Origin: Vulcanimicrobiaceae bacterium
Lineage (GTDB): Bacteria > Verrucomicrobiota > Verrucomicrobiia > Limisphaerales > Palsa-1400
NCBI GenBank assembly: GCA_035511075.1
Contig: DATKFW010000032.1
Coordinates: forward strand, 82,950-146,949
Direction of reading: 5' to 3'
DNA length: 64,000 bases
Below the pieces are notes generated by a model that was given only the letters and a program-made list of their open reading frames with translations, was not told the origin of the DNA and ran no database searches. Shown here piece by piece: positions 1,430 through 35,893 of this stretch. The first letter of the stretch is position 1. Each line of letters starts with the position of its first letter. The position numbers were made by a program, and so were the translations under genes.

Positions 1430-4400
1430 TCACTTCCGTAATTTCATCAGCAAATCCTTGCTTTCCACCGTGTCTCCGACTTGCGCCAAAATGGCGTCCA
1501 CCGTGCCGTCCCCGGAGGCATAGAGGGTGCTTTGCATTTTCATGGCCTCCAGTGTGAGCAATTTGTCGCCTTTGCTTACCTTGGTGCCGACGCTGACGGC
1601 CAGCGATGTAATCAGCCCCGGAATGGGCGCGCCCACCTGGAGCGGATCGGCCAGGTCGGCCTTGGGGCGCGTTTTGGCCTTGGCTTGTACGGAGCGGTCG
1701 ACGATGGATGCTTCGCGCGTCATGCCGTTTAACTCGAAAGTCACGGTGCGGCGGCCGTCCTTGTCCACGTCGCCGACGTGGATCAACTTGATGAAAAGGG
1801 TCTTTCCTTCCTCGATGTCCACTGAGATTTCCTCGCCCGGCTTGAGACCGTAGAAAAACGCCGGCGTGGGAAGCACGGCGACATTGCTGTAATCGCGGGT
1901 GAAGCGGACAAATTCCGCGAAGACTTCCGGATACATCAAATGGCGGTACAAATCGTCATCGGTCGCCTCGCGTTTGACTTTGGGGGAAAGCTCCTCCTTG
2001 ATTTTTTTGAGGTTTAACGGCTTGAGTCCGGCGCCGGGGCGGCCGCGAATGGGTTTGCGGTCGCCCAGCACGATTTTTTGGAGTTTCTTGGGCCAGCCGC
2101 CGGTGGGTTGGCCCAGGTTGCCCAAGAGCATGTCAATGACGGAGGCGGGAAACGGAGTGGCACCCGGTTCGAGGTTTAGGACATCGGCTGGGCGGATGCC
2201 GCGCGAAATCAGGAACATCGTCATGTCGCCAACGACTTTGCTGCTTGGGGTGACTTTGACGATGTCGCCAAACAAGGCGTTGACCTCGGCGTAAGTGCGG
2301 GCGATGTCATGCCAGCGATGGGACAGGCCCATGCCGGCGGCCTGCTCTTTGAGATTGGTGTATTGGCCGCCGGGCATTTCGTGCCAATAGACCTCGGCGG
2401 TGCCGCTGCGGGGCGCGGTGTCGAAGGGCGCGTAATAGGCGGCGACATTTTCCCAATATTCGGAAAACTCATTGAGGACCGGCAAATCCAGACCCGTCTG
2501 GCGCGGAGTGTGGTCAAGGGCCGCGACAATCGAGTTGAGATTGGGCTGGCTTGTGGAACCGCTCATGGAGGCGATGGCCAGATCGACGACATCGACTCCG
2601 GCGTCACTGGCTTGGAGGACGGAGGCAGAATTGATGCCGCTTGTGTCGTGCGTGTGGAAATGGATCGGCAGGCCCAATTGCTCTTTGAGGGCCTTTACGA
2701 GCGCCCGGGCGGCGAAAGGCCGGCACAATCCCGCCATGTCCTTGATGCAGAGAAAATGAGCTCCCATCCTTTCCAATTCCTTGCCCAGCTTGATGTAATA
2801 TTTCAGCGAATATTTCGTGCGCGCCGGGTCCAGAATATCGCCGGTGTAGCAAATGGCCGCTTCGCAAACGGCGTGCGTTTCCCGCACGGCCTCCATCGCC
2901 ACCCGGAGGTTGGGCGTGTAATTGAGGGAGTCGAAGATGCGAAAAATGTCGATCCCGGAGGCGGCGGCGTGTTTGACAAATCCGGCCACGACGTTGTCGG
3001 GATAATTGGAATAACCGACGGCGTTGGCGCCGCGAAAGAGCATTTGGAAGCAGATGTTGGGAATGCGTTCCCGCAAGTCCCGCAACCGCGCCCACGGGTC
3101 CTCGTGCAGGAAGCGCATGGCGGTGTCGAATGTCGCCCCGCCCCACATCTCGAGGCTGAAAAACTGCGGCGTCCGGCGCGCCACGGCCGGGGCGATGGCC
3201 AGCATGTCGAAGGAACGGACCCGGGTGGCCAGCAACGATTGATGAGCGTCGCGAAAAGTCGTGTCGGTGATAAGGAGCCGTTTTTGAGCGAGCGTCCATT
3301 GGGCAAATTTCTCGGCGCCCATTTCCAGCAGCAATTGGCGCGTGCCTGGCGGGGGCGCCGCCTTGCGGTCGTGTTGGGGAGGACTGACGGGCACGAAGGG
3401 GGCCTTGAGGCGGTGGCCCTTGGCTTGGGGATTGCCATTGACAATGACATCGCCGAGAAAGGCCAGGAGTTTGGTGGCGCGGTCGCGCCGCGACTTGAAT
3501 TGAAAGAGCTCCGGGGTGGTGTCGATGAGCGTCGTGGTGGCCTGGCCGGAACGGAAAATGGGATTGGCGATGACGTTTTCGAGAAAGGGGATGTTGGTTT
3601 TGACGCCGCGGATGCGAAATTCCCGCAGGGCGCGGTCCACCCGTTGCAGGGCCAGATCGAACGTGCGCCCGTAGCCGGTGATCTTGACCAGCAGAGAGTC
3701 GTAAAACGGTGTGATCACCGCCCCGGCATAACCCATGCCGCCGTCCAGCCGCACGCCGTAGCCGCCTGTGGAACGATAGGTCAAAATCTTTCCGTAATCC
3801 GGGGTGAATTTATTTTCCGGGTCTTCAGTCGTCACCCGCGCCTGAACCGCGTAACCGATGCGCGGGATTTCGTTCTGGGGAGGGAGATTGACTTCCTCGC
3901 CATGCAAATCGTGGCCCTGGGCGATCAGGATTTGCGACCGAACCAGGTCGATGCCGGTAATGACCTCGGTGACCGTATGCTCGACCTGGATGCGCGGGTT
4001 GACCTCGATGAAAAACCAATCGTGTTTGTCCAAGTCGTAAAGGAACTCGACGGTGCCCGCATTATCATACTTGACGGCCCGGGCCATGCTGACGGCCGCA
4101 TCGCATAAATCCTTCCGAACGGCCGGGTCCAAGCCGCAGGAGGGGGCGATCTCGATGACTTTTTGATGCCGCCGCTGGACCGAACAATCGCGCTCGTGCA
4201 AATGGACGGCGTTTCCGTGGCGGTCCCCGAGGATCTGGACTTCGATGTGTTTTGCGCGCGGTATATACTTTTCCAGGAAAACAGACGGATTGCCGAAGGC
4301 GCGCCCCGCCTCGCTTTGGGCTTCGTCAAGCAAATTAGCCAGATCCGAGGCTCGATGCGCCACGCGCATGCCGCGTCCGCCGCCGCCGTAAGCCGCCTTG

Positions 4401-8890: not shown

Positions 8891-10960
8891 ATGCCGGCTT
8901 TGCCCGTTCATACGAACCGTTTGGCGCGCGAGAAATCGCCCTACTTGTTGCAGCATCAACATAACCCGGTGGATTGGTTTGCCTGGGGGCAGGAGGCCTT
9001 CGCCAAGGCGCGCCAGGAGAACAAGCCGATCTTTCTGAGCATCGGCTACTCCACCTGCCATTGGTGCCACGTCATGGAGCGGGAATCGTTCGAGGACCCG
9101 AAGATCGCCGATTTCCTCAACGCCCATTTTATCAGCATCAAGGTGGACCGGGAGGAGCGGCCGGACGTGGACAAAATATATATGACGGCAGTGCAGGCAC
9201 TGGCCAGGCAGGGCGGCTGGCCGCTGAACTGCTTTCTGACGCCGGAGCTGAAGCCCTTTTACGGGGGGACGTATTTCCCGCCGGAGAACAAACATGGCAT
9301 GGCCAGTTTCATCGAGGTGCTGCGGCGAATCGCGCAGCTTTGGGAGGATCGGCGCGACAAGATACTGGAGACCGCAAGCGATTTTCATCGTCAGCTTGCG
9401 ATGGTCGCCGCGCGGGAGGTCGGCAATCCGATACTGTCGCCGGCATTGCTCGAAAATGCCGCCGGCGTTTTCAAGCAGGAATACGATCCGGAGTTCGGCG
9501 GGTTTGGCGGCGCGCCAAAATTTCCGCGGCCGAGCCAACCCATGTTCCTGTTGGGCCAGGCTGCGCGCTGGAAAGACGGCGAAGGACTCAAAATGGTGCT
9601 CCACACGTGCGAGCGGATGGCGTCGGGCGGGATTTACGACCATCTCGGGGGCGGATTTGCGCGGTATTCGGTGGACGCGCAATGGCTGGTGCCGCATTTC
9701 GAGAAGATGCTCTACGATAACGCGCAACTGCTGAATCTTTACCTGGACGCCTGGCTGGTGAGCGGCAATCCGCGCCACGCCGAAACCGCGCGCGGCATTA
9801 TTCAATATGTCCTTCGCGATATGACGCATCCCGGAGGCGGGTTTTATTCCGCCGAGGACGCGGACAGCGAAGGCAAGGAAGGAAAGTTCTATTGCTGGAC
9901 GGCGGCGGAGCTTTCCCGGCTATTGACGCCGGCGGAGGCCAAGATCGCTGTGCGTTATTTCGGCGTGACGGAGCAGGGCAATTTCATCGATCACAGCGAC
10001 CCCGATCCGCTGCCAAACCAGAATGTCCTGAGCATCGCCGACCCGAATTTGACGCCGGATGAGGAAAAAATTCTGGAATCGGCGAGGTCTAAAATGTTTG
10101 AAGCGCGCGGCAAACGCGTGCGTCCCCATTTGGACGATAAGGTGCTGGCCTCGTGGAACGGGATGATGCTGGGGGCGCTGGCCCGGGCCTATTCGGTGCT
10201 TGGCGACCCGGCATACCGGGTTGCCGCGGAGAGGAACGCGGCATTTTTGCGCGAGCAACTTTGGGACGAAAAAAGCCACACATTATATCACCGGTGGAGG
10301 GAGGGCCAACGGGATTCGGTGCAGTTGCTGTCCGCCTATGCCAATCTCTGCGCGGGAAGCATCGATCTCTACGAGGCCACGCTGGAGTCCGCGCATCTGG
10401 ATTTCGCCATCGCCCTGGCCGAGGCGATGCTGGCGAAGTTTTACGACGGGGCCAATGGCGGTTTTTACGACAGCGCCGCCGGCGAGGGCGAGTTGATTCT
10501 GCGCTTAAAGGATGATTATGACGGCGCGGAGCCGGCGGGCAATTCAGTCGCGGTGTTGGCGTTGCTTCGTCTGGCGGAGATTTCCGGCCGCGAGGAATTT
10601 GCGGTGGCGGCGAAAAAGACGTTGCAACTCCTGGCGCCGCGTTTGCACGACCTGCCGCAGGCGGCGCCGCACCTGTTGATCGGGCTGGCATTTTTCCTGG
10701 GCGGCACGAAACGGGCCGTTGTCGCCGGCGATCCGAAGCGCTCCGAAACCAGGGCGCTGCTGCGGGCGATTCATGCGGTCTACCAGCCGAACAAGGTTGT
10801 GCTGGGCAATAGGGGAGCCGTTGAACCGTTCGCAAGGACGCTGGCGGCCGGGAACGGGCCCGTTGTTTTTCTATGCACTGAAAACGCCTGTCAGGCGCCG
10901 GCGTCCGACCCGGAGTCTGTCAAGAATCTTATTGCCGAAGTTGCAGGAGGACAATGGTAG
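8891..10960 (+). CDS. thioredoxin-domain protein of the DUF255/YyaL family (thioredoxin-like N-domain + six-hairpin domain)
   Basis: ATG at 8891 gives [37 protein letters not shown]...[13 protein letters not shown], the conserved YyaL N-terminus. The upstream 30 codons of the listed ORF overlap the divergent fsr start. Confidence 0.85.
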
Positions 10961-26329: not shown

Positions 26330-26404
26330 GCGCGGTTAGCTCAGTGGTAGAGCATCACCTTGACACGGTGGGGGTCACAGGTTCAATCCCTGTATCGCGC
26401 ACCA
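26330..26404 (+). tRNA. tRNA-Val (anticodon GAC), CCA encoded
   Basis: Manual cloverleaf. Acceptor GCGCGGT/ATCGCGC (one G-U), D arm GCTC-AGTGGTA-GAGC, anticodon arm TCACC-TTGACAC-GGTGG, T arm ACAGG-TTCAATC-CCTGT, discriminator A plus CCA. Confidence 0.9.
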
Positions 26405-27673
26405 TTTGGACTCTTCTTGACTCTTCGCGACAGAAGCCGACAAACCATGACAATCCCCTTTGTTTTCAAGGCTTTTGGCAATTTGCGTTACCGCAAAATC
26501 CGCGACAGACCGCGACACCGCGGGACTGCTCTGGACTATAGTTTGTGAGTCCAGTTGTGAGTCAGGTTTTGCGGCCTTCTCACCGTCGATAAAAGCCAGC
26601 TTTTGCACCGCTTCAAATGTGCCAAGCTGCTCTTCGTCAGTGTAGTCCATGTCCGTAAGCTTGCGCGTCCCGTGTCGCATCAATTGCATCGCCTGACGCC
26701 CTGACACGTTTGCCCGGTGCAGGTTCGTGCAAAACGTGTGACGCAAGGCGTGAAAATCCGCCCGCAATCCCCGCTCATCAACGAACAGGATTTGCGCTTT
26801 ATCCATGTCCGACTTGAACGTTTCCATTTTCGGTAACAATCCGGCAAACACCCTGTCTGAATCACCCGCCCGCGCAGATCGAAGGGCTTTTAATTCAACG
26901 GCCAGGCTCAAATGCAGCGGAATAAACGCCTGCTTGCCATTCTTCGTTGTACCCGCGCGGAGCACCAATCGCGGTTGCGGACAGTCCAAATGAACGTCTC
27001 CCCATAAAAGTTCCCGCAATTCGCCCCGCCGAACTCCCGTCAGCATCGCCATCAAATAGACTATCCGCCGCCGACCAGCCACCGCCAGCAACCGCGACGC
27101 CTCATTGTCGGTCAGAGCGCGACGTGCATACCGTGGTTTGATCGCCCGCGTGGTACGCCATCCTTCAACAATTTTGAGCGGATTCGCCTGGAGGCGCTCC
27201 CGCCGTTCCATCCAGTTCAGCAATGCCTTGAACGAGATCAAGTATTCATTGAGGGTTTTGTCCGATTGCTTTTGCTCCGCCCGCCATGCGCGGAACGAGT
27301 CCGGCGAAATGTCCCGCGCAAATTCCCAACCACAGTCGCCGGCGACTTTCAATACGCGGTTCTTCAATTCGTAAAGATAACGCTCGTCGCGTCCACCCTC
27401 CCGACGCTCCGCCACAAAATCGGCCAGGTGTTCCGCAATCGTCTTTTGCGCACCCTCACGGATGTTTTTCGGGGTGATCACCCCTTCAGCCTCCTGTTGC
27501 CTCTCACGAGCGATTTTCTTCAACCTCTCAAGCGCCACTTGCTTGTCGAAAGTGTGCAACGGAATGTCGGTTGTCTTTGTGGCCCCATCCAATCGCAAAC
27601 GACCGCGATACATTCGGGCGGTTTTCGACCGACCCTTTTTGCTCCGTTTGGGTTTGAACACATATAAAATCAC
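26375..27673 (-). CDS. int: tyrosine recombinase / phage-type integrase
   Basis: Probable GTG start at 27673 (GTGA overlap with the upstream ORF stop), giving (M)ILYVFKPKRSKKG... Catalytic residues in ..LTGVRRGEL.., ..HALRHTFCTNL.., ..LMRHGTRKLTDMDYTD... The 3' end runs into the tRNA core and stops at a TGA at 26375-26377. Confidence 0.9.
   Translation of the reverse strand: MILYVFKPKRSKKGRSKTARMYRGRLRLDGATKTTDIPLHTFDKQVALERLKKIARERQQEAEGVITPKNIREGAQKTIAEHLADFVAERREGGRDERYLYELKNRVLKVAGDCGWEFARDISPDSFRAWRAEQKQSDKTLNEYLISFKALLNWMERRERLQANPLKIVEGWRTTRAIKPRYARRALTDNEASRLLAVAGRRRIVYLMAMLTGVRRGELRELLWGDVHLDCPQPRLVLRAGTTKNGKQAFIPLHLSLAVELKALRSARAGDSDRVFAGLLPKMETFKSDMDKAQILFVDERGLRADFHALRHTFCTNLHRANVSGRQAMQLMRHGTRKLTDMDYTDEEQLGTFEAVQKLAFIDGEKAAKPDSQLDSQTIVQSSPAVSRSVADFAVTQIAKSLENKGDCHGLSASVAKSQEESKWCAIQGLNL
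26377..26405 (+). repeat. att core copy 1 (within the intact tRNA-Val 3' end)
   Basis: ACAGGTTCAATCCCTGTATCGCGCACCAT. Identical at 34528-34556 and with one mismatch at 35809-35839. Confidence 0.9.
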
Positions 27674-33810: not shown

Positions 33811-34149
33811 CTACTCCAAGGGCAGCGTTGAAACCGCCCGAATCATGACGCCGTTCTTGGCGTCAAACGTGTTCGGTTCCATCAGGTCGAATTCGATCAC
33901 CAGCTTTTGCCCGTCTTTGAAGATGCACGGGCATTGCGAAGTGGCTTGTTCGACTGTCTGGACGCTCCGAGGGCACCAGGTTTGAACCGTCGGTGCCTTC
34001 CCGTCGGCACATTGAACTTCGTAAAGGTTCACGATGCCGACGACCTTTTGTGCCTTGTTCTGAACTTCTTTGTAGCGATGCGCCACAAACTTGGCGATGG
34101 CCACACGGCGGCCCGCCAAGAACTGATTAACTGCTTCTGCTTGTTTCAT
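33811..34149 (-). CDS. hypothetical protein (first gene of the Rep transcription unit)
   Basis: 112 aa, same strand as and directly upstream of Rep. No recognisable motif. A single-strand-binding role is only a guess from position. Confidence 0.4.
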   Translation of the reverse strand: MKQAEAVNQFLAGRRVAIAKFVAHRYKEVQNKAQKVVGIVNLYEVQCADGKAPTVQTWCPRSVQTVEQATSQCPCIFKDGQKLVIEFDLMEPNTFDAKNGVMIRAVSTLPLE

Positions 34150-34311
34150 GTTTTTCCATTTGGCTTAACTGCGCAACAGGCGACGCCACGGCCTTCGCCG
34201 TTGAGGTTCACAACGATCAGTCCTTCGATTTTTCCATCCACGCCGGCCGAGCGAGCAGAATGGCCGGTTAGTTGCGCGACAGGCAGGCCACGCCTATTGC
34301 GAAAGGGAGCA

Positions 34312-34340
34312 TTGACAGTGCGCCGCTTCATTGGTAAAGT
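34312..34340 (+). promoter_or_regulatory. outward-facing sigma70-like promoter in end module copy A
   Basis: TTGACA (34312-34317), 17-nt spacer, TAAAGT (34335-34340). Points across the att core toward the PEP-CTERM gene. Confidence 0.45.
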
Positions 34341-34527
34341 TTCGTTGAAGTGGAACCCATTTCAGCCAGTGCCAGGATTGCAGCTTTGACAGCGGGAAGG
34401 AGCGTCGGCCAAGCGTTGATGACCGAAGCCAACTCGGCGGGAACAGGTGCCACTTGGTGTCCGACTGCGGTTTGTGAGTCTATTTGTGAGGCTCTTGGCG
34501 TAACGGCTTGATTTGCATCAGGCTTTG

Positions 34528-34556
34528 ACAGGTTCAATCCCTGTATCGCGCACCAT
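34528..34556 (+). repeat. att core copy 2 (attR of the 8.2-kb element)
   Basis: Identical 29 nt to 26377-26405. Confidence 0.9.
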
Positions 34557-35507: not shown

Positions 35508-35539
35508 AGGCGTTGGCTCTGGCCAGCGCCTTTTTGTTT
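35508..35539 (+). terminator. rho-independent terminator of the PEP-CTERM gene
   Basis: AGGCGTTGGC-TCTG-GCCAGCGCCT: a 10-bp stem with one G-U, followed by TTTTTGTTT. Confidence 0.7.
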
Positions 35540-35629
35540 CCTTCGATTTTTCCATCCACGCCGGACGAGCAGGCAGAATGGCCGGTTAGTTGCGCAACAG
35601 GCTGGCCAAGCCTATTACAAAAGGGAGCA

Positions 35630-35658
35630 TTGACAGTGCGCCGCCTCATTGGTAAACT
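35630..35658 (+). promoter_or_regulatory. outward-facing sigma70-like promoter in end module copy B
   Basis: TTGACA (35630-35635), 17-nt spacer, TAAACT (35653-35658). Points toward the prepilin-type gene at 35894. Confidence 0.4.
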
Positions 35659-35808
35659 TCCTCTGAAGTGGAACCCGTGCCAGCCGCGCCAGGATTGCAG
35701 CTTTGACATCGGGAATGAGCGTCGGCCAAGCGTTGATGACCGAAGCCAACTCGGCTGAAACAGGTGCCACTCGGTGCTCGGCTGCGGTTTGATTTGCATC
35801 AGGCTTTG

Positions 35809-35839
35809 ACAGGTTCGATCCCTGTATCGCGCACCATTT
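35809..35839 (+). repeat. att core copy 3 (outermost, one mismatch)
   Basis: ACAGGTTCGATCCCTGTATCGCGCACCATTT. One A-to-G change relative to the tRNA. Matches 2 further nt of the tRNA 3' flank. Confidence 0.85.
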
Positions 35840-35893
35840 AAGGAGGGAATTTTTTTGACTTTAGAGTCTTAACGATTAAAATAAGGTAAAGCT

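Follow-up and report, generated by a model that had tools for sequence, protein, structure and literature searches.

An integrase reading frame that runs through its own attachment site in a verrucomicrobial island, with a C-terminal module predicted for the excised circle

In some mobile elements, integration alters the product of the very gene that holds the attachment site. The phage attachment site (attP) of Mx8 lies inside int and its integration creates a new 3' end with altered properties (PMC6070905), while the Islander paper reports that the integrases of both Mx8 and SSV extend across attP (PMC4383910). The SSV-type 'suicidal' integrases of SSV1, pTN3 and pT26-2 form a compact integrase-plus-site module in which the att site lies in the integrase gene and integration partitions that gene; Int(N) is thereby parted from the catalytic Int(C), which leaves the gene inactive, and these integrases, of family PF16795, are stated to be confined to archaea (PMC8371274). 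In mycobacteriophage BPs attP also lies inside a gene, whose product is shortened at its C-terminus and changed in behaviour upon integration (PMC4557955). Here, we analyse a tyrosine integrase of an 8.1-kb element inserted at a transfer RNA (tRNA) gene for valine in a soil Vulcanimicrobiaceae bacterium of the phylum Verrucomicrobiota (assembly GCA_035511075.1, contig DATKFW010000032.1). The whole stretch of 64,000 nucleotides (nt) that was analysed is referred to as the window and all positions are positions within it unless stated otherwise. The att core lies within the integrase open reading frame (ORF), 3' of the catalytic tyrosine, and the frame would gain a tail of 66 codons in the excised circle.

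The 28-nt core occurs exactly at 26377-26404 and 34528-34555 and with 1 mismatch at 35809-35836; by chance, 0 such copies would be expected. Copies 1 and 2 bound the element at tRNA-Val (Table 1). At core copy 1 the integrase frame reads ..WCAIQGLNL and then stops at a TGA (26377-26375) that lies within the tRNA gene one codon past the core, the G of this codon being the first tRNA-specific base outside the core. At core copy 2 the same frame again reads WCAIQGLNL, encounters TCA (Ser) in place of the stop and is then free of stops for 66 codons, until a TGA at 34330-34328. Both readings were made in the original prediction and were reproduced here. The integrated-state integrase was assigned a length of 432 amino acids (aa) on account of the lengths of its homologues and its start context, a GTG that overlaps the stop of an excisionase (xis)-like ORF as GTGA. 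Its catalytic domain matched PF00589 at 57.6 bits against a cut-off of 27.1 (residues 234-394 of P0001), the PHROGs match was phrog_1 integrase at E 3.7e-38, and the catalytic residues R195, K224, H288..R291, H314 and Y324 (P0003 numbering) were invariant or nearly so in 33 homologues.

The tail was recognised in relatives in which it is joined to the integrase. Most relatives found at 40-50% identity in the integrase search end in peptides such as ..GFEPAT.., ..RVRTCD.. or ..WCAIQGLNL, and as these C-termini are tRNA genes read backwards, those relatives are integrated forms. Longer relatives pass through a tRNA-like core peptide and end in (D/E)L..V(V/I).AWP.LP...(K/R)AAILAIV. Ten contiguous integrases of 443-556 aa were found, five by the integrase search (P0098, P0042, P0070, P0077 and P0119) and five by a search with the tail alignment (P0124, P0131, P0132, P0136 and P0138, in addition to the partial P0142). 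Homologues with contiguous AWP.L....KAAILAL tails, named in the original prediction as a way of checking its claim, are thus at hand. A tail profile was built from eight contiguous tails of distant homologues, with no window sequence in it, and compared with 1538 six-frame fragments of the window. This resulted in matches to the tail of the element (tail A) at E 5e-7 and to a second copy beyond the element (tail B) at E 6e-6, the next best fragment having an E of 0.2.

Two of the contiguous forms are informative as to their genomic context. P0098 lies in a tandem array, and its ORF continues through a core to take in the tail of the adjacent element; another core with a tail is found 6.7 kb upstream at this locus. 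P0138, which is 27% identical to the window integrase, is encoded on L091, a 5573-bp contig (Logan contig of SRR5754826) whose ends share a complex 30-mer, as expected of a circle assembled with 31-mers. The int ORF of this contig (2275-3831) reads through a complete tRNA-Leu-like sequence (3572-3655, opposite strand) and ends in the motif. Two further contigs tested for circularity, L090 and L092, had no terminal overlap.

At least 542 relatives were counted among species-representative genomes, from which 80 loci were taken, mostly from Verrucomicrobiota and some from Planctomycetota. Across 83 related loci (34,079 fragments) all tail hits had the orientation of the integrase and were either joined to int or located upstream of it, on the attR side. 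The phase at attR was then read from an anchor on the tRNA and not on the tail, namely a stretch of 16 nt or more from the 3' part of the tRNA that recurs upstream, as was the case in 18 loci. The integrase phase was open for 62-77 codons from the core, motif included, in 16 of these 18, at loci that target tRNA-Val, Lys, Ser, Arg, Pro and Leu. On the other side of the crossover, the linker that leads to the tRNA (52-83 codons, about 59) was open in the integrase frame in 55 of 58 loci, as against 4 and 2 of 58 for the other frames. Homologues that end near the catalytic domain, and tails interrupted by stops, the pattern that the original prediction had set against its own claim, are therefore not what these loci present. 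A phase test based on the longest shared repeat was set aside, one locus having been counted twice and the arm repeat taken for the core in three loci. The genome also contains a paralogous element at tRNA-Gly, again with a tail in phase, 7.3 kb upstream of the integrase.

The pattern of change in the tail is that of a protein. Over 28 tails, a 31-codon block had diversities of 0.50, 0.34 and 0.66 at codon positions 1, 2 and 3, respectively, and at conserved Leu, Ala, Ile and Val codons the diversity was near 0 at position 2 and near 0.7 at position 3. W40 and L43 were invariant in the alignment of 30 tails. The closest relative is P0144 on L120, which has the same prepilin-type host gene alongside and is at the same chromosomal locus; its core is identical, its tail likewise has 66 codons and the tail stop overlaps the next start as ATGA in the same way. 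The ratio of non-synonymous to synonymous substitution rates (dN/dS) against L120, another of the checks named at the outset, was 0.40 over the whole tail and 0.16 for motif codons 31-55 at a dS of 0.75 (Nei-Gojobori). The attR ends of the closest integrase relatives were out of range, as the island of P0007 extends beyond the 10-kb flank and the contig of P0008 ends 1.5 kb upstream of int.

A different constraint was observed on the segments flanking the core. The sequence GACTCACAAAC occurs exactly at 26541-26551 and 34470-34480, in each case with a second, degenerate copy 12 nt away, and the GACNCACAAATA repeats are candidate arm-type integrase-binding repeats of the element. The repeat has the form GAC-NCA-CAA-ATA twice over. 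Its third codon positions are invariant in most of 57 P arms and 16 P' arms and it uses rare codons (TCA, CAA and ATA) in genomes of ~58% G+C. In the L063 lineage the sequence is TCC-CGA on both arms, so that the repeat co-varies with the integrase lineage. Since third positions are invariant and rare codons are used, the DSQxDSQ likeness between the two arms reflects conservation at the level of DNA. The resemblance between the segments before and after the core that had originally been noted (KPDSQLDSQ and ASQIDSQ) is accordingly real as a repeat, while its reading as protein similarity does not hold. These repeats are probably arm-type integrase sites that lie within the reading frame, and sites embedded as DSQIDSQ codons would make a clean example of dual constraint on DNA and protein. 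A second conserved patch, ..SLENKGDCHGLSASV.., is located in the linker about 20 codons before the core (26455-26500, minus strand) and recurs in many relatives as (I/L)(E/D)N(K/R)G(D/E)...LS..V.

Beyond the element, tail B is open from core copy 3 for 64 codons, and relative to copy A it is without 36 nt that are exactly the segment with the double 12-nt repeat. The block VAPV.AELASVINAWPTL(L/I)P(A/D)VKAAILA is kept in both copies. In copy B the loss of 1 nt directly after ..AAILA throws the remainder out of frame, from which it follows that this copy is a decaying remnant; the open frame from core 3, the 36-nt indel and the retained block had been described correctly beforehand, to which this frameshift has to be added. 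A decayed tandem remnant next to the element is in keeping with the possibility that the family architecture is real and that the copy in the window is a fixed relic, from which neither a circle nor a long integrase is ever made in this organism. The Rep of the element is also unusually small, at 165 aa as compared with 328-561 aa in relatives, and the two small ORFs between the tail and Rep, of 61 and 112 aa, matched no family in Pfam or PHROGs. The cores of the element are however identical over 28 nt, its integrase, xis-like gene, both pairs of arm sites and tail are all intact, and purifying selection has acted on the motif since the element diverged from its closest relative. A relic is therefore regarded as unlikely, if still a serious prospect. 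The two small ORFs were also considered as pieces of a broken large Rep and rejected as such, as tblastn with nine Reps of relatives gave nothing significant outside the known Rep ORF.

The tail is frequently coupled to the genes that follow it. Its stop overlaps the next start as ATGA or GTGA in 11 of 28 tails, and in three more the start lies 8-11 nt before the stop. Seven of ten downstream genes scanned in relatives matched the rolling-circle Rep families PF23343 or PF02486. In the window the PF23343 Rep lies two small ORFs beyond the tail and is not the gene that starts at the tail stop; the chain of overlaps runs from the tail TGA to the ATG of the 61-aa ORF and from the stop of the latter to the ATG of the 112-aa ORF, followed by Rep. 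On account of these stop/start overlaps, the xis-like gene, the integrase with its tail and the replication-side genes would form one overlap-coupled chain only in the circle. This coupling could in itself account for an open frame, if the sole reason for keeping the frame open were the passage of ribosomes across attP to the replication genes and the peptide had no function. For that purpose an open frame suffices, yet the W and L of the motif are invariant and its codons are under purifying selection. Moreover, a confident fold was predicted for the module. AlphaFold2 modelling of the homologue P0098, with an alignment that included tails, gave a confident integrase body up to about residue 340, disorder at 366-391 and 412-438 on either side of the core-encoded part, and a helix-turn-helix at 443-468 (helices 443-452 and 455-468) with a predicted local distance difference test (pLDDT) score of 83-88. 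A role in ribosome passage alone is in consequence considered improbable. The predicted complex of P0098 residues 1-365 with residues 425-472 scored 0.00, 'no answer', which is no verdict on docking either way.

The tail could alternatively be a separate small gene with its own start in the P' arm, expressed in both states and never fused, in which case the phase shared with the integrase would be incidental. Orphan tails are indeed annotated as small ORFs, among them P0144 and the 140-239-aa ORFs P0127-P0130, P0133-P0135, P0137, P0139, P0141 and P0143, and the coupling of the tail stop to downstream genes would fit an operon at the attR end. A separate gene would not need to keep the integrase phase across the core without stops, as nearly all of the qualifying attR loci do, nor would it require the linker to be open up to the core. 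The alignment contains no conserved start codon between core and motif, and contiguous integrase-tail ORFs exist. A search for sigma70-like promoters on the tail strand between the flank and the tail found none, which is weak evidence in the same direction. Taken together, a gene of its own for the tail is most improbable.

Several observations weigh against the assignment of the tail to the integrase. In the window alone, a 66-codon open run is obtained from 9% of positions after shuffling and from 33% of positions in the real sequence, and tails A and B differ by 2 synonymous and 6 non-synonymous changes, so that the evidence from within the window falls short of showing coding. The last 11 codons of the tail look unconstrained in the comparison with L120. 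Two of the 18 attR cases fail, L049 due to a premature stop in the integrase and L051 being a doubtful 'island' of 1.7 kb, and in L041 (11179-11370) and L076 (11146-11733) a tail is found directly downstream of int and out of frame. These four elements may be decayed; for L041 and L076 the alternatives are a frameshift in a fused form, an error in sequencing or, possibly, a programmed shift. Phase at attR alone has a binomial P of 1.7e-6 with relatedness ignored, and such binomial figures overstate significance because relatives are not independent and are indicative only. As to function, the tail matched no family in Pfam or PHROGs and any role given to it is putative; the ESM Atlas returned short hypothetical proteins only, with scores of at most 0.88. 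The terminal overlap of L091 suggests, short of proof, a free circular molecule, and for the particular element in the window both the circle and a junction-spanning product would be extrapolations from sequence.

The alternative put forward in the original prediction itself, a chance open frame over DNA conserved only as the P' arm of attP, could draw on the frequency of such open runs, on the DNA conservation between copies A and B, which continues for ~107 nt past the tail stop at similar identity, and on the true conservation of the ASQIDSQ part as DNA, but it is hardly credible as it fails on the saturated third and fixed second codon positions of the motif and its low dN/dS, on the recognition of the tail by a protein profile made from contiguous homologues, and on the arm-site segment, which with its invariant third positions and rare codons provides an internal contrast of the opposite pattern.

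With the above weighed, the tail very probably is genuine coding sequence and part of the integrase as encoded in the attP state. Comparison of sequences establishes the geometry and phase, the conservation of the tail as protein and the contiguous forms in relatives, and the proposal of an in-frame tail added to the integrase upon excision is supported by these contiguous homologues and by the phase at attR. In the model that we propose, the whole of attP would lie within the 3' part of the integrase ORF, with the P arm and its arm sites, the 28-nt core, and the P' arm with its arm sites in succession. The ORF of the circle would accordingly encode the catalytic domain, a linker of ~65 aa (P arm), nine core residues, ~30 aa (P' arm), a module of ~25 aa of the form ELxxV(V/I)xAWPxLPxxx(K/R)AAILA(I/L)V and finally ~12 residues. 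The product would measure 498 aa and the TGA at its end would overlap the ATG of the next gene. Upon integration, crossover at the core would cut the ORF and the tRNA gene would supply a TGA one codon past the core, resulting in the 432-aa form, while the tail and the genes downstream of it would come to lie 8 kb away at attR without the integrase promoter upstream.

By analogy with IntP and IntX of Mx8, the chances are about even that the two forms differ in activity or directionality and that integration uncouples the replication genes from the int operon. A broader proposal is made more tentatively, with the balance tilting somewhat against it: that this clade of Verrucomicrobiota and Planctomycetota elements may use its own recombination as a switch, such that the module-bearing integrase and coupled translation of Rep would occur only in the circle, integration would shorten the enzyme and silence replication, and the module would be a new built-in regulator of the directionality or activity of tyrosine integrases, encoded across an attP in which arm sites also serve as codons. 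The arrangement found here provides a directly testable model of the way in which small integrative elements sense their state, integrated or free, and lock it in. There are also consequences for annotation. Gene calls for integrases of this clade routinely finish in a stretch encoded by the tRNA, the true C-termini appear at the opposite island end as orphan hypothetical proteins, and island-finding software must allow for coding sequence across attP.

Table 1. Positions of the features discussed, in the window unless another contig is named
Feature	Position	Strand	Basis or remark
Tyrosine integrase, integrated-state form, 432 aa	26375..27673	-	PF00589 E 1.8e-15; closest homologues 432 aa, ending in WCAIQGLNL
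tRNA-Val(GAC)	26330..26404	+	ARAGORN; integration target; 3' 28 nt are core copy 1 (attL side)
Core copy 2 (attR side)	34528..34555	.	core search; exact match to tRNA 3' end
Tail segment A, 66 codons and TGA	34328..34528	-	in phase with the integrase frame through the core; recognised by the tail profile
Conserved module ELASVINAWPTLLPAVKAAILAL, tail residues 32-54, predicted helix-turn-helix	34367..34435	-	W40/L43 invariance, codon-position pattern, motif dN/dS
P-arm double 12-nt repeat (GACTCACAAAC and degenerate copy)	26541..26563	-	encodes DSQLDSQ within the integrase linker; probably arm-type integrase sites
P'-arm double 12-nt repeat (GCCTCACAAAT and GACTCACAAAC)	34470..34492	-	read as ASQIDSQ; absent from remnant copy B
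ORF with excisionase-like helix-turn-helix in C-terminal ~70 aa	27670..28170	-	phrog_66 excisionase/regulator E 2.6e-5
61-aa ORF	34146..34331	-	ATG overlaps tail stop (ATGA)
112-aa ORF	33811..34149	-	ATG overlaps stop of 61-aa ORF (ATGA)
Small HUH rolling-circle Rep, 165 aa	33208..33705	-	PF23343 REP_ORF2-G2P E 1.5e-6; same orientation, downstream of tail
End-module copy B, ~300 bp	35539..35841	.	contains core copy 3 and tail B; remnant of an earlier tandem element
Tail B	35618..35809	-	36-nt deletion, 1-nt frameshift; recognised by the tail profile
tRNA-Gly element of the same genome (L116; G000, contig C125)	int 9307-10495; tRNA-Gly 10448-10524; tail fragment 3061-3330

The interior of the element holds a three-gene secreted-protein cargo on the plus strand, and its far end carries the HUH Rep, the 112-aa ORF, the 61-aa ORF and the tail segment on the minus strand. 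A gene for a PEP-CTERM protein is found in the ~1 kb beyond core copy 2, followed by end-module copy B, which ends in core copy 3. A sigma70-like promoter, TTGACA-17-TAAAGT (10/12), at 34312-34340 on the plus strand faces outward; it straddles the tail stop codon and is antisense to the tail and the 61-aa ORF, and an equivalent match lies at the corresponding place in copy B.

Further observations were made on the related islands. In the same genome another integrase of this family is located at tRNA-Asp (contig C96, L118, as distinct from the tRNA-Gly element of contig C125, L116), and the end of contig C121 (L117: 3832-4125 and 5130-5372) carries two tandem orphan tails with tRNA-Val-like cores. 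A tandem array at L006 (4557-13172) contains ParD/ParE pairs duplicated along with core and tail, with a Cas9-Cas1-Cas2 locus just beyond. The integrase frame of L061 (10001-13073) is open for 685 codons beyond the catalytic domain and a second integrase copy and a tail lie upstream in the same locus. The L091 contig also encodes a serine resolvase. Two other proteins, P0126 (Clp_N domain) and P0125 (PF11459), run directly into the tail motif, the former with no obvious tRNA-core peptide and the latter with only ..QELNL.. before the tail; these are either related elements that insert at or beside such genes or host ORFs that read into attR. A minimal element of 2.5 kb is found at tRNA-Lys in a metagenome-assembled genome of Akkermansia muciniphila (L083: 8677-11375), with an in-phase tail, and a family member is found at tRNA-His in the complete genome of the cultured Planctomycetales bacterium ZRK34 (L028). 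Both could serve as experimental systems. Cerasicoccus arenae KCTC 12870 (L050, L086) and Haloferula luteola YC6886 (L064) are further candidate cultured hosts of the family.

In comparison with the described systems, the catalytic domain (PF00589) of the integrase analysed here stays whole and the C-terminal module alone would be removed, unlike in the SSV type, and PF00589 is the only Pfam family that it matches. The review in which recombinases with a target site in their own gene are called archaea-only (PMC8371274) stands in contrast to this bacterial clade. In BPs the gene is a repressor and the part removed is an ssrA-like degradation tag (PMC4557955), whereas here the gene is that of the integrase itself and the part removed is a helix-turn-helix-like module with no sign of a degradation tag. 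The small size and integration at tRNA genes, and the combination of a tyrosine integrase, an excisionase and a rolling-circle initiator, are shared with the pSAM2-type elements of actinomycetes. Some of the tail-coupled Reps have weak RepSA matches (PF20199, E 0.0015-0.008) that are below cut-off, and to our knowledge neither the gene order observed here nor an att site inside int is a feature of pSAM2.

The closest counterpart is Mx8. As here, its attP lies in the integrase coding sequence downstream of the catalytic domain, giving IntP in the phage and IntX in the prophage, its core is derived from a tRNA gene and the prophage integrase has a different C-terminus (PMC6070905, PMC4383910). 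The sequence of Mx8 Int has the same order of parts, namely a catalytic domain, a linker, a tRNA-like ..TGLEPV.. peptide and a tail of ~110 aa, and, as with the xis-like ORF here, there is an overlap between its excisionase gene uoi and the start of int. Functional consequences of the arrangement in Mx8 have reportedly been measured, by Magrini et al. in 1999. Mx8 Int had no similarity to this family beyond the superfamily (BLASTP E of 1.6 or worse), its tail was without the AWPxLP...AAILAIV module (hhalign probability of 0.15%), and a search of a phage collection with P0098 returned one weak match to an unannotated record and none to Mx8. The likeness is one of architecture, not of family. 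Furthermore, Mx8 is a tailed phage of 49.5 kb, whereas the family here consists of islands of 2.5-10 kb with rolling-circle Rep genes coupled to the tail, and the trait is a conserved one here, shared by a large clade in Verrucomicrobiota and Planctomycetota that targets many tRNAs. No description of this arrangement was found in the literature searched, the coverage of which was incomplete. What is new is an Mx8-type architecture in an unrelated, large integrase clade with a conserved switched module of its own and a link to replication. An integrase whose C-terminus is rewritten by the reaction that it carries out has so far been treated as a curiosity of Mx8; here it would be a conserved rule in a large bacterial clade.

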